Shown here: positions 33,368 through 37,402 of the stretch, in pieces
How positions within the stretch are numbered: the first letter of the stretch is position 1
Layout of the letters: each line of letters opens with the position of its first letter
Assembly: GCF_045037415.1 (NCBI RefSeq)
Contig: NZ_CP173440.1
Direction: 5' to 3' (one strand)
DNA from: Escherichia coli
Lineage (GTDB): Bacteria; Pseudomonadota; Gammaproteobacteria; Enterobacterales; Enterobacteriaceae
Length of the DNA: 64,000 nucleotides
Translations under genes and position numbers: made by a program
Notes under the pieces: generated by a model
Database searches by the model: none
The model's input: the letters and a program-made list of their open reading frames with translations, nothing else
Told to the model about the DNA's origin: nothing

Positions 33368-33467
33368 GTTATCGCAATCAGGAAAAATGCCTTCCGTCTG
33401 CTGGTGGTTGATATTTGCTCTGGTGTTACCATTTGGGTATAATGTAATGACCAAATGGAGGTTTGCT

Positions 33468-33911
33468 ATGAAAACTTTTAGTTTGTCCTCAACTCCAGCC
33501 AGACCACAGCGCCTCTGGCAGGTTGCCGGGTTAAATAATGCTGATGGTGTAGCGCTCCTGGGCCAAATCAATGAAGGCCTGGACGGGAAGGTGGTGAACC
33601 GGATCACTGACTGGGCCAGAATAACCCAGAATGACCTGAGAAAAATGTCCGGTATCCCGTCAACCACATTTAGCCGCAGTGTGAAGGCACGTTTTAACCC
33701 GGAACAAAGTGAACGTCTGGTACGGATTATCCGCGTTATTGATCGGGCGGTAGATTTGTTTGAAGGCGACAGGGAAGCCGCACAGAAGTGGTTGAACGAA
33801 CCTAACCGGGCATTGAGCTGGAAAGTGCCAGCAGACCTGATGGCATCCGAAACGGGAGCCTATGAGGTCATTAAGCTGATTACGCGTCTGGAGCATGGGG
33901 TGTACTCGTGA
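33468..33911 (+). CDS. type II antitoxin, DUF2384/Xre-type (ParS/MbcA-like)
   Basis: C-terminal WLNEPNRAL...P.DL......GAYEVIKLITRLEHGVY is the hallmark of antitoxins partnered with RES toxins. Promoter-like TTGCTC-17-TATAAT upstream, GGAGG ribosome-binding site. Track ORF begins earlier (33387). Confidence 0.7.
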   Translation: MKTFSLSSTPARPQRLWQVAGLNNADGVALLGQINEGLDGKVVNRITDWARITQNDLRKMSGIPSTTFSRSVKARFNPEQSERLVRIIRVIDRAVDLFEGDREAAQKWLNEPNRALSWKVPADLMASETGAYEVIKLITRLEHGVYS

Positions 33912-34378
33912 TCCTCTACAGGCTGACGAAAACAAAGTATCTTTCTACGGCCTGGACCGGATATGGTGCGAAAGAGGCTGGTGGGCGCTGGAATAGCGTG
34001 GGGGTGTCAATGGTATATGTCTCCGAAACGGCATCACTAACGATGCTGGAGACCCTGGTACACCTGCATGCGGCACAGATAATGGACTCTTTCACGCTAC
34101 TGAGTATCGATGTGCCTGATGAACTGATACAAAGCGCAAACATGGATGAATTACCGGGCAACTGGGCTGATGAGGATGCGCCTCAGGAACTGGCTGATTA
34201 CGGAGATGCCTGGTCATTTACCAGGAGCTCGGTTGCACTGCGTGTTCCCTCAGCCTTATCGCCGGTAGAGTTCAATTATCTGTTAAATCCTGAGCACCCT
34301 GAGTTTTACGGGATCGTGCAGAAGGCTCAACAGATACCGTTCCGGTTTGATAGTCGTCTTAAACCTGACAGGAAGTGA
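33908..34378 (+). CDS. RES-domain toxin
   Basis: 156 aa; GGRWN motif and overall RES-domain pattern. GTG start overlaps the antitoxin stop by 4 nt. Confidence 0.7.
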   Translation: MILYRLTKTKYLSTAWTGYGAKEAGGRWNSVGVSMVYVSETASLTMLETLVHLHAAQIMDSFTLLSIDVPDELIQSANMDELPGNWADEDAPQELADYGDAWSFTRSSVALRVPSALSPVEFNYLLNPEHPEFYGIVQKAQQIPFRFDSRLKPDRK

Positions 34379-34440
34379 AGCAAGAGAGGATAGGGCGCTG
34401 TCATGATGCCTGGCGCTCCTGCCCGGTGTCACATAAAAAA

Positions 34441-34457
34441 GCCCGCCAGCGGCGGGC
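34441..34457 (-). terminator. rho-independent terminator-like hairpin
   Basis: GCCCGCC-AGC-GGCGGGC, followed on the minus strand by a T-run; downstream of the 34488-34746 gene. Confidence 0.5.
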
Positions 34458-34487
34458 AAAGACTACACACAGCTATTACAGGATGAT

Positions 34488-34746
34488 TCAGGCAGTTTCT
34501 TCGTAAACGTTGTAATCCAGTTTTGCTCCACTGTAATTCTGCAGACTACGGGCTTTATTCATCGCGCAGCTGAACGCATTCGAACGATCGCCTGCACTCC
34601 CGTTATGCCCATAGCGGGCAATTTCATACGGTTTCTCATAACTGCATTCTTCCAGCACAATAAAGGCTCCCGGTTCACTGGTCAGCAATTCGAAACCAAG
34701 ACCTGCGGCTTTTGTATTCCTTAGCTGGTAATATGCAGTGAGTGTC
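34488..34746 (-). CDS. hypothetical small protein
   Basis: Probable start MTLTAYYQL (86 aa) inside the longer track ORF 34488-34868; followed by a terminator hairpin. Confidence 0.4.
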
Positions 34747-35469
34747 ATAATTGATTCCTTAAATAATACCGATACAAAGATATTTCTACAGGCATTGTTG
34801 AGTCTGTGAAATTGCTGATAGTTCAGAGTGCCTGTAAGTAATAATAACTTATTCAAGTGGCGCGTCAATTGGTAAATAACCTTACCGTCATTATATTTTG
34901 AAAGAAATACAATCAGGAAAAGTGACTTTAAAAATCTCTTTCGGATATGACGCTACTGATATCTGATATTGCCTGGAGAATTTTGTCATAGGCGTAGACC
35001 TCTATTTGGGCGTAAATCTTCAATCTGGTAGCTGAGTCGTTTGGTTAACATCAGACATGGGCGCAGCTGGCGAACAAGGGGGTTGTTCTGGCACTACATT
35101 GCGTCTGCACAGAACCGCTACACTGGACGGCGCAGAAGTGGTAACCGGAGCATATCGACAGAGGGGAAAATTCATGACTGAACTCCAGCAGATGCCGGGA
35201 TGCAGGGCAGAAACACGGCGGAAACCATCTTAAAAGTTATTAACTTACCAGCTTATTAGCCCTGGGAGGATGGGAGTAAACACGGTATAATGGTGTCGGC
35301 GCTTGAGGCTTTTTGCCTCATGATGTTTGAGTGTTTTGATGTTGTGAGGCAGAAAGAAGAAAGCCCCGTAGGACGTTAATTTTCATTAACCAACCACACG
35401 AGGCCATCTGCTTGACTAGACACCAACAGAGTAGCCTCTTAGCTGCCGTAAGGCAAGGAGAAAAAGGCT

Positions 35470-35628
35470 ATGAAACTGCCACCTAGTAACCTGTTATGGT
35501 GTGTATTAATAGTGTGTCTCACACTACTGGCATTCACCTACCTGACCAGAAAATCGCTCTGCGAAATCCGGTACAGGGACACAACCAGGGAGGTGGCGGC
35601 TTTTATGGCCTACGAATCCGCTAAGTAG
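35470..35628 (+). CDS. hok: Hok/Gef-family type I toxin
   Basis: 52-aa [55 protein letters not shown]. Absent from the ORF track because it is under 60 aa. Followed by a GC-rich hairpin (~35633-35660). The upstream mok/sok region was not delimited. Confidence 0.85.
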
Positions 35629-36230
35629 CCAACCCCGGCGGAGGGCAACCTCCGCCGTACAGGGGCTGAACTGTCTGGACATGCCTGAAGCGCTTTATGA
35701 AGGGGTTACCAGTGCGCTGGTAGCCCCTTTTTCCTGACTACATGAAATAAAAAAAGCCCGCACGACGACGGGCAAAAAAACACATTCATCTTTCTACACA
35801 TGGATTCAATGAATCGCAAATCAATATAGCACACTTCACTCCATGTGACACCCTGTCATCAGTCTGAAAACCGGACGGAGACACAGCTTTATCCTGACGT
35901 CTGCTCAATGGATGAGGGGGGCATCAATATATTAAATTACTGGCTAATTAAATCCATGAAACACAATCAGGAAAATCATTAATACTAATTTTCCTGTCGG
36001 ATTTTATACGCCGGTATGCTGCATGTTAACTGATAAAAACTCTGGATGATTCTGAATGCTGTAAATGACTAAGGAATTTATAACCGCTTTGGTATGCATT
36101 TCCCGTAAGCTGGAAATAGCTTCCGGTGATGATAAGGGGTTGATGATCGTTATTTTATTGGTATCCTGGTGTGCATGAATGAAATATTCGCTTATACCTT
36201 GCCAATATTTTTTTAAACAGGGGTTCACGA

Positions 36231-37205
36231 ATGAAAACTCAAAACACACCAGCCACTCACAGCGACATTCTTTTTACCCATATCGTGAATATGCTGGTGG
36301 ACCTTGCTAAACATGAAGGCACTCTAATGACGTTTGAAGGCCTTCTGCGGCACGGTATCGAGGTAGATGAAGAGATGATGGATAGCATGCTGGGGGTGAG
36401 TCAGGACTCAGCTGCTCAGTGCGTGGTTCAGCTAAGGGATTGTGGTGCCATAACGAGCCCTGCGGTATATGAGATGGTTACACACGTTGAACAACTGGCG
36501 ATGCGTTTAGCCCCAGACTGGTGGAAGAAAATCGTGCCATGGTCGGTTCAGCCGCTGCGGTACTACCAGGAAGAGGCTAGGGCAAAACGCGAGCGATTTA
36601 TTGTCTGTCAGAGGGAGCGCCAGTACCCCTTCAACGTCTACGTAACAGGTCAGGTAGAATATCCGGAAGATGACCCGATATATGGCACGTACGTTACAGA
36701 AGGTACGTTCCTGGTAGGTAAAGCGAAAACCATACATGATGCCCTGGAATGCGCAAAAGAAGCTTTTACGCGGGGTGAATGGATTGTCCTCGAAGAAGAA
36801 GGGCGGGATGAGTTCGTTGACCACCTGACAGGACGTGACCAGGGGCCGGTGAGTTTTTCCGAAAGGACTATAGAGATCCGCGATAGAGGTGACAGGCTGG
36901 TGTTAACAGGCAATGCCCGCACACTGGAGTGGCACCGCCATGTAACCAGCCCTGATGAGATCGAAAAGATAAAAGCACAGCAAAAAGACCTCTATCAGAA
37001 AGCAAGCTATGAGAGTGGCTGGGACAACTACGAGACTGCACGACAGCTGCGGCGGCAAGCTGAACAGTTATCTCTCGGTTTTGTTGAAGAATGCTGGCGT
37101 AACCATCCGGAAGTAATTCAGGCGGTAGAGAAGTTCGAGTATCCGGTGTTTATAGATGAGGAGATGGCTCTTTTTAATGCAGATCAGGATGCTGGTATTG
37201 ACTGA
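36231..37205 (+). CDS. hypothetical protein, 324 aa
   Basis: Long clean ORF, acidic. Confidence 0.5.
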   Translation: MKTQNTPATHSDILFTHIVNMLVDLAKHEGTLMTFEGLLRHGIEVDEEMMDSMLGVSQDSAAQCVVQLRDCGAITSPAVYEMVTHVEQLAMRLAPDWWKKIVPWSVQPLRYYQEEARAKRERFIVCQRERQYPFNVYVTGQVEYPEDDPIYGTYVTEGTFLVGKAKTIHDALECAKEAFTRGEWIVLEEEGRDEFVDHLTGRDQGPVSFSERTIEIRDRGDRLVLTGNARTLEWHRHVTSPDEIEKIKAQQKDLYQKASYESGWDNYETARQLRRQAEQLSLGFVEECWRNHPEVIQAVEKFEYPVFIDEEMALFNADQDAGID

Positions 37206-37402
37206 TGGTCAGCTGGTGGCCGACGCGAACATTATGAACCGGAATCGCCCGGAACAGGTGTTGCTGGGCGGTTGGCTGTCTATGGCCATCACTTTAGCCC
37301 ATTTCTCCTGAATGCAAATTCTCCGGTACTGTGACACCGGCTGAGCCAAACGAAACGGACAATCAGGAAAAATATGCTGCTCGTTACTTGTGCCCGATCA
37401 AG

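Follow-up and report, generated by a model that had tools for sequence, protein, structure and literature searches.

In the window analysed here, a 64,000-nucleotide stretch of Escherichia coli DNA (contig NZ_CP173440.1 of assembly GCF_045037415.1), the 12-mer CAATCAGGAAAA recurs four times within 4 kb directly after umuDC, among a ParST toxin-antitoxin (TA) pair, a hok locus and ORF324, an open reading frame (ORF) for a conserved orphan protein. We consider this box most likely to be an undescribed control signal for plasmid maintenance genes and not a shared translation start. Because it is coupled to an operator-like DNA palindrome, a DNA-level regulatory role is the best single reading, and we favour, tentatively and short of calling it probable, an oriented cis-regulatory DNA box of the IncHI plasmid backbone, acting in concert with a palindromic operator. 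What recurs is in fact a motif pair spread over the backbone, a CAATCAG-purine box and the IncHI palindrome AAAGTNACTTT, of which the four focal copies are the densest cluster.

The initial annotation had reported the recurrence at ~33375, 34909, 35964 and 37360. All four positions are borne out by exact copies on the + strand (34909 is the start of the 13-mer form of the second copy, its leading A included), and three additional exact copies, at 469 (+), 5274 (-) and 25939 (+), bring the window total to seven. The copies, with two variant composites, are as follows:

33375..33386, + strand: box copy A, starting 8 nt past the umuC stop and 82 nt before the start of the ParS antitoxin gene.
34910..34929, + strand: box copy B (box at 34910-34921), fused to the palindrome as CAATCAGGAAAAGTGACTTT, with the palindrome part at 34919-34929.
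35964..35996, + strand: box copy C (box at 35964-35975) and a partial inverted copy, together an 11-bp hairpin CAGGAAAAT...ATTTTCCTG; ORF324 lies 255 nt downstream.
37360..37371, + strand: box copy D, between the convergent ORF324 operon and a - strand gene of 125 amino acids, 31 nt beyond the stop of the latter.
25939..25950, + strand: box in the coding sequence of the type IV-A3 dinG (csf4) gene, in sense orientation.
5265..5285, - strand: box fused to the palindrome as CAATCAGGAAAAAGTTACTTT, intergenic and sense to the flanking - strand genes.
469..480, + strand: box antisense to both neighbours, a DUF957 gene and a 203-amino-acid gene on the - strand.
29466..29485, + strand: variant composite CAATCAAGGAAAGTTACTTT, between the CRISPR array and the intron/umuDC promoter.
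19306..19322, - strand: variant composite CAATCAAAAGTAACTTT, adjoining the repHI1B replicon.

Copy B occupies the divergent intergenic gap between a - strand gene of 86 amino acids and hok, where a sigma70-like TTGGTA-17-TATATT ends 12 nt upstream of the box. The 469 box is the sole window copy antisense to its neighbours, and a degenerate palindrome, AAAGTTAATTA, comes after it. A second variant, CAATCAGCAAAG, is found at 29525 near the 29466 composite, and the 19306 composite and copy A have TTATCGCAATCA in common.

This recurrence is far beyond chance. No copy with one mismatch was found anywhere in the window, and shuffling gave an expectation of 0.54 at up to one mismatch, with seven reached in none of 100 shuffles. 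Once the seven copies are removed all sub-word counts fall to expectation, so the repeat is the 12-mer CAATCAGGAAAA as a unit, not a k-mer skew, and a common sub-word artefact is ruled out as the source of the excess. There is no other conserved position within 150 nt on either side of the copies; they are therefore not fragments of a longer repeat, and a hidden second box is likewise excluded.

The same picture emerged on a complete plasmid. As reference we scanned the whole of the Klebsiella pneumoniae plasmid pKpvST147B_virulence (pKpv; NZ_CP040726.1, 339,117 bp, IncHI1B/IncFIB, MOBH, MPF_F), to which the window is 99.7-100% identical over the aligned blocks. It carries eight exact copies of CAATCAGGAAAA against 0.125 expected. 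Seven of these fall within 291.8-317.5 kb, the equivalent of the window region (the 5274 (-) box is pKpv 317488-317499, between the coding sequences 317169-317375 and 317677-317874), and the eighth is in a duplicated dinG fragment that is 99% identical. The probability of four of eight copies lying inside a given 4 kb is 3e-6, so the motif is commoner here than elsewhere on the replicon, and the local enrichment on which the initial annotation had staked its idea survives the plasmid-wide count. A one-base variant, CAATCAGAAAAA, occupies five further sites elsewhere on the reference backbone, and the relaxed form CAATCAGRAAAA occurs 13 times on the plasmid (0.48 expected); the exact word is thus a local feature, and the relaxed box extends more sparsely over the whole backbone. 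Of the 12 unique boxes that the reference plasmid carries, ten run sense to the genes around them (p = 0.02), seven are intergenic and two are at gene ends. An iteron was considered and rejected: the exact 12-mer lies beside neither replication gene, and only the variant composite at 19306 adjoins repHI1B.

The second element of the pair came from a k-mer census, in which no non-CRISPR repeat of the window was commoner than the palindrome AAAGTNACTTT (in extended form, AAAAGTWACTTTT), present 30 times:

5265, 6666, 7777, 11469, 13234, 15479, 19306, 19477, 19594, 20161, 25074 and 29475: palindrome sites (examples).
34919, 38429, 40361, 42341, 44058, 44386, 51440, 51542, 52786, 55365, 55382, 61227 and 63647: palindrome sites (further examples).

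On the reference plasmid AAAGTNACTTT was observed 92 times against 1.2 expected, almost wholly in the IncHI backbone, the resistance and virulence inserts carrying only 1-4 copies per 50 kb. It is equally dense in the IncHI1 plasmid R27 (15 per 50 kb) and the IncHI2 plasmid R478 (17 per 50 kb), and absent from the IncC plasmid pAR060302 and from F-like loci. Clusters are found upstream of the traL operon, in the mobI-side region of the origin of transfer (oriT), beside repHI1B and in one 750-bp intergenic region. About half of the copies are intragenic, some of them at conserved positions such as the trhU start. Its distribution suggests that the palindrome is an operator or organising site common to IncHI plasmids. 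It has the sequence characteristics of a KorB/ParB-type site, in being a multi-copy backbone palindrome at transfer, oriT and replication regions. The reference plasmid encodes a ParB-family protein (pKpv 30486-31496), and our guess is that such a protein might be the factor that binds the palindrome.

The two motifs are physically joined, in CAATCAGGAAAAGTGACTTT at 34910 and in CAATCAGGAAAAAGTTACTTT at 5274 (-), and variant composites of box and palindrome occur at 29466 and 19306 of the window, at pKpv 27228 and 88232, at R27 22140 and in two of the related loci described below (L009 21214; L012 14341). Among 322 palindrome flanks, those of the IncHI1 plasmid R27 included, CAATCA was the most robustly enriched hexamer (15 observed, 1.8 expected), at a spacing from the palindrome that varies from 0 to 5 nt. 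In the searchable literature we found no CAATCAGGAAAA, its complement or AAAGTNACTTT in a plasmid context, and a paper on R27 regulation mentions no such motif (PMC7366339).

Related plasmids were gathered through homologs of ORF324. In the close relatives L010 and L015 all focal copies are exact, despite a 2-kb insertion or other small flanking genes; copy D of L010, for example, is still beside the 125-amino-acid gene despite the insertion. The more distant relatives, L009 (Raoultella pWLK-238550), L011, L012 and L018, have ORF324 proteins 56-59% identical, TacAT instead of ParST, and phd-doc or other genes instead of hok. Their junctions nevertheless keep CAATCAG and a purine run. After the umuC stop and 7 nt, the ortholog of copy A is exact in L010 and L015, CAATCAGGGAAAA in L009 and L018, and CAATCAGGAAAG in L011 and L012; across five lineages the seven intervening bases vary and the box is constant (GGAAAA, GGGAAAA or GGAAAG), whether ParST, TacAT or another gene comes next. 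Upstream of hok, phd-doc or ORF324, CAATCAG(G/A)AAAA is kept next to upstream flanks that cannot be aligned. The equivalent of copy B upstream of phd-doc in L011 and L012 is CAATCAGAAAAA, and copy C, exact in L010 and L015, is also exact in L009 inside non-homologous flanks. Near the 125-amino-acid gene the box of the distant relatives reads CAATCAGAGGAAAAG, and the site orthologous to copy D in L009 is CAATCAGAGGAAAAGTTACTTT, a composite with the palindrome. In another plasmid, pVir_090276, the 469 site has diverged to CAATCAGAAAGG and the five sense copies are exact.

CAATCA followed by six purines is 14- to 40-fold enriched in the window (10 observed, 0.7 expected) and in the shorter relative loci (L009, 6 and 0.33; L010, 7 and 0.27; L011, 8 and 0.2; L012, 6 and 0.15). 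The whole reference plasmid, accessory regions included, has 22 against 5.1 expected, an enrichment of ~4-fold, and F-like plasmids carrying ORF324 homologs have none. Box copies are identical within the lineage of the window and differ between, and within, distant lineages. Uniformity within a lineage with variation between lineages is as would be expected for sites co-evolving with a cognate factor.

Comparison of window 33468-35628 with L011 6744-9188, L012 6668-9187 and L018 8251-8987 delineates two slots after umuDC, holding ParS/ParT(RES) or TacA/TacT(GNAT) in one, and hok/sok, phd/doc(Fic) or a DUF5431 gene in the other; this arrangement amounts to slot-wise exchange of TA systems on a conserved scaffold. 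The initial annotation had tied the box to a stability module formed by the RES pair and hok. Its concentration in this region stands, and the specificity for these TA and hok genes does not, the box persisting with TacAT and phd-doc.

A shared translation-initiation element, also suggested at the outset, has to be abandoned. An ATG at usable spacing follows only two of the seven window copies (33375 and 37360). The ORF at 33387, after copy A, is an in-frame upstream extension of the antitoxin, that at 37374, after copy D, is antisense to an annotated gene, and at copy B (34910) a GTG 3 nt on, at 34922, opens 14 codons. The ORFs after the boxes are unrelated to each other and none is kept at the orthologous boxes of L009, L011, L012 and L018. 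With no conserved ORF after the box, the idea fails, and we reject a leader peptide with it.

In the reading that we favour, the 12-mer would be a locally homogenised version of a short, asymmetric box acting in cis, with the core CAATCAG and a purine run, CAATCAGRAAAA. A plasmid-encoded, sequence-specific protein would read it as double-stranded DNA and would act with, or as accessory to, the factor binding the palindrome AAAGTNACTTT. The box would then set or insulate transcription of the successive units, umuDC, ParST, hok/sok, ORF324 and their neighbours, possibly in an orientation-dependent manner like a repressor roadblock (stoperator). More speculatively, and we regard this extension as doubtful, the plasmids of the IncHI group (HI1, HI2 and the HI1B/pNDM-MAR-like hybrids) might carry an undescribed two-part cis code that forms the DNA side of a plasmid-encoded global silencing and insulation system. 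The parts of this code would be a palindrome in ~90 copies, kept even in coding sequences, and the oriented box, which would act as a polar, stoperator-like stop/start signal, silencing the genes for TA, SOS mutagenesis and establishment once the plasmid is settled in its host and releasing them on entry into a new cell.

Several observations weigh against a protein-read DNA box. No candidate binding protein emerged, and the conserved neighbouring genes have no DNA-binding domain on record; ORF324, which we considered for this role, has neither a family match nor a fold match in the Protein Data Bank (PDB) and was set aside. The 0-5 nt between CAATCA and the palindrome, and the tolerance of the purine run for insertions of 1-2 nt, are unusual for a rigid protein-DNA interface. 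The boxes lie at varying distances from predicted promoters, only one of the four focal copies has a palindrome close to it, and the sense bias noted above suits an RNA-level function at least as well. The box-to-TA-promoter distance ranges from 28 to 36 nt. A fixed-distance sigma70 promoter element was also rejected, a -10-like hexamer lying 12-13 nt upstream at only two of the seven sites, and the consensuses of IHF, ops, DnaA, FNR and similar factors did not fit in a by-eye comparison.

The main alternative, that the motif acts in RNA, as a leader or untranslated-region (UTR) signal of CAAUCAG with ARN/GGA-type purines, strikes us as rather unlikely, though not negligible. A site of this kind for a small RNA (sRNA), Hfq, CsrA or another RNA-binding factor could co-ordinate the translation or stability of maintenance genes; it would account for 10 of 12 unique boxes being sense to local genes, for a purine run that reads (ARN)n or CAGGA, and for an indel tolerance like that of unstructured RNA sites. 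The -10-like hexamers at 34910 and 5274 would place the box at about +6 of a transcript. A candidate - strand antisense RNA across copy C (35996->35745, ~250 nt; fold z = -3.3) has a predicted promoter, TTAACA-17-TAAAAT, at 36029-36001 (10/12 match), a strong intrinsic terminator at 35773-35756, between hok and ORF324, and UUUUCCUGAUUG at its 5' hairpin. In L010, however, the body of this RNA is replaced by three small - strand genes facing the same promoter, and the only reverse complements of the box on the 339-kb plasmid are the strands opposite its own copies. The antisense-oriented 469 site has drifted in pVir_090276 beside five exact sense boxes, so there is no covariation; the boxes in L011 and L012 are not all alike, which precludes a single seed for the whole set. 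Searches by tblastn found no plasmid CsrA, and coupling to a DNA palindrome is left unexplained by an RNA site. An sRNA from the 469 intergenic region was rejected on its weak terminator, a fold z of -1.0 and the lack of covariation in pVir_090276, and Rfam at relaxed threshold returned nothing at the boxes. The initial annotation had proposed a regulatory element or small-RNA target: the former holds in general terms, the box being a selected, non-coding IncHI backbone element with an orientation bias, found in the gaps that separate small maintenance and establishment units, and the latter shares the lower standing given here to RNA-level action.

A transcription-coupled signal in the non-template strand, resembling ops, or another co-directional process (a site of pausing or of antitermination loading, or a signal in transferred single-stranded DNA for priming or for early expression in the recipient), appears improbable. 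In its favour, the box is 12 nt long, asymmetric and sense-oriented, with its places in the leaders and inter-unit gaps of an extended array of co-oriented genes, and the genes here are of leading-region type (hok, umuDC, DUF957 and ORF324, whose F-plasmid homologs lie by ArdA and TraM). Yet it has no sequence similarity to ops, GGCGGTAGnnTG, and low-sensitivity tblastn searches for E. coli RfaH and NusG gave no match at E < 0.7 on the plasmid or in the window; for RfaH, NusG, CsrA and FlhDC alike, tblastn found no plasmid homolog, a weak test. Variant backbone boxes lie on the other physical strand and are still sense to local genes, which argues against a signal specific to the transferred strand. 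We hold a recombination or module-junction scar, with the box marking where cassettes (TA modules, hok, ORF324) were joined or exchanged, to be very improbable. One box does sit in each of four consecutive junctions, the slots differ in relatives (ParST or TacAT; hok or phd-doc), and homology begins at the box in L009, L011 and L012. But breakpoints among ~1,500 related plasmids do not coincide with the boxes (BLAST query positions 1457, 1783, 2019, 2462, 3174 and 4870 within 33000-38000), homology after umuC runs ~60 nt past the box before the modules diverge, the L010 breakpoints are ~50 nt from boxes, and there is no recombinase-type inverted architecture. That the box has no dedicated function at all, as a Shine-Dalgarno-like sequence or as chance plus hitch-hiking in recently duplicated DNA, is close to refuted. 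It does contain AGGA, and some members of the relaxed family overlap real ribosome-binding sites (pKpv 64523, before trhU; 260348). Coding constraint may also explain part of the dinG copy, which lies in a sequence for SI(R/K)(K/R)I and whose ortholog in L011, CAATCAAAAGAA, encodes SI(K/R)(R/K)IF. Against this, exact copies are more than 60-fold above expectation, duplication is excluded by the lack of homology between the flanks, lineages with unalignable flanks still have CAATCAG in common, and no conserved start codon follows the box.

Gene identities in the focal region were taken from the reference annotation plus NCBIfam and Rfam searches, and the 5-kb region itself matches ~1,500 PLSDB records, mostly from Klebsiella pneumoniae. 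Its genes are:

31674-32096, + strand: umuD.
32096-33367, + strand: umuC.
33468-33911, + strand: ParS (Xre/DUF2384) antitoxin; Xre_ParS match of 113.9 bits (NCBIfam cut-off 90).
33908-34378, + strand: ParT (RES) toxin; Res_ParT match of 169.4 bits (NCBIfam cut-off 110).
34488-34748, - strand: gene of 86 amino acids with no assigned function; its 3' end and terminator extend the entry to 34431.
35297..35628, + strand: hok/sok-type type I toxin-antitoxin locus, with the hok ORF at 35470-35628.
36231..37205, + strand: ORF324, conserved orphan protein of 324 amino acids.
37403..37780, - strand: gene of 125 amino acids with no assigned function, syntenic with ORF324 in all MOBH relatives.

The DUF2384/RES pair and the hok-like gene that the initial annotation had placed after umuDC were confirmed by scores above the respective cut-offs. 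The ParS and ParT genes overlap by 4 nt and have the features of a RES-Xre (ParST/MbcTA-type) type II TA system as predicted from sequence. A match to the hok family NF007279 (110 bits; cut-off 73) and an Rfam match to sok (RF01794, 96.9 bits; gathering score 59) at 35297-35472 supply the Hok-family ORF and sok RNA region of a type I system. ORF324 had no match in Pfam, NCBIfam or PHROG, and its AlphaFold model (predicted local distance difference test, pLDDT, 78) had no significant PDB fold match; in some records this small family is misnamed 'Hok/Gef family protein'. In F-like plasmids (L013, L014, L016 and L017) the homologs have ArdA, LPD29/30, SLT and TraM as leading-region neighbours, a setting that suggests a role in establishment. 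At 34431-34532 (- strand), the 86-amino-acid gene ends in a 3' portion and terminator with GCUGUGUGUAGUCUUUGCCC, a hairpin and a U-tail. Together these are almost identical to the 3' domain of RprA, an sRNA of enterobacteria, and the Rfam match (RF00034, 42 bits, E = 5e-4) is below the gathering score of 70; the segment may be a plasmid-borne RprA-like 3'-UTR RNA.

The + strand has Chi sequences of the E. coli type, GCTGGTGG, at 33398-33405 and 37209-37216; the former is 12 nt past box copy A and is kept in L009 and L010, with GCTGGTGT in L011 and L012. Beyond the focal region are the traD-mobH-mobI operon and oriT. Upstream, a type IV-A3 CRISPR-Cas locus (Cas6, DinG/Csf4, Csf2) occupies window 22900-29400, with an array of ~16 repeats of 61-nt period at 28462-29400, and a truncated second type IV-A3 copy is present on the reference plasmid (pKpv 205245-207243). 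A group II intron (29700-31660) has an Rfam D1-D4 match at 29771-29996 and a reverse transcriptase/maturase ORF at 30101-31588. Its 5' end, GTGCG at 29738, directly follows a LexA-box-like TACTGGTTATATATACAGT (TACTG-N10-CAGT), which puts the intron between the SOS operator/promoter and umuD. We rejected the box as an intron homing site (IBS2-IBS1), the 29738 junction being in the umuDC LexA box and the nearest box variants more than 200 nt off. Compared with pKpvST147B, the window has its block 1-21299 inverted against the remainder. An IS4321 copy (21297-22634) marks the inversion junction, ~23 nt inside the annotated 5' end of repHI1B; positions 17820-19163 are an inserted ISL3-family element.

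In Klebsiella pneumoniae, carbapenem resistance combined with hypervirulence travels mainly on these IncHI1B/IncFIB hybrids and on plasmids related to them. A box at each umuDC/ParST/hok/ORF324 junction, together with a family-wide palindrome, provides mutable handles for finding regulators and for testing the co-ordination of stability and transfer, and both motifs could be used as easy markers for recognising IncHI backbone DNA from sequence. If it turned out that the box is a polar roadblock, or that the boxes are the targets of one RNA, a new regulatory layer would have been found for large resistance plasmids.

Known systems offer partial parallels, the closest in behaviour being mycobacteriophage stoperators and the KorA/KorB operator pairs of IncP plasmids. 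The ops element recognised with RfaH is a 12-nt sequence, GGCGGTAGnnTG, in operon leaders. Like the box it is sense-oriented and non-coding, and it is found in leaders of horizontally acquired operons, plasmid tra operons included; the box sequence is unrelated, and several of its copies are at the 3' ends of units and not in leaders. With sRNA seeds, Hfq (ARN)n sites and CsrA GGA sites the box shares sense bias, purine-rich ARN/CAGGA content and tolerance of small indels, but it differs in having no partner or covariation found, and its association with a palindrome and the copy between convergent genes are atypical of such sites. Among plasmid regulatory sets, IncP plasmids have the global operators of KorA (OA) and KorB (OB), the latter a 13-bp palindrome, TTTAGCSGCTAAA, in 12 copies; the repeat-regulated network of the IncW plasmid R388 and the IncN CUP/ArdK regulon are further examples. 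These operator sets resemble the IncHI pair in being backbone-restricted short repeats at transfer, replication, maintenance and leading-region promoters; like OB with OA, the 6+1+6 palindrome AAAAGTNACTTTT has a different box as partner at some of its sites. The sequences, however, are not similar to those of any of these sets. The IncHI palindrome is ~8 times more numerous and about half intragenic, and its companion box is asymmetric, orientation-biased and variably spaced. Stoperators, the 13-bp asymmetric sites (GGTGGMTGTCAAG) of the L5 gp71 repressor in cluster A mycobacteriophages, differ from the box in belonging to phages and not a plasmid and in being far more numerous (the box has 8-13 copies) and assigned to a repressor, for which no counterpart emerged here; the 3' half of the box is also lineage-variable, and the box is often fused to a separate palindrome. 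In other respects the two are alike: both are short asymmetric sites of 12-13 bp in many near-identical copies, mostly in short intergenic gaps with few inside genes, oriented with transcription, uniform within a genome and slightly different between lineages. With eight exact and 13 relaxed copies, and 10 of 12 in sense orientation, the box shows a stoperator-type site pattern, and it is in this pattern that it resembles a polar, stoperator-like roadblock.

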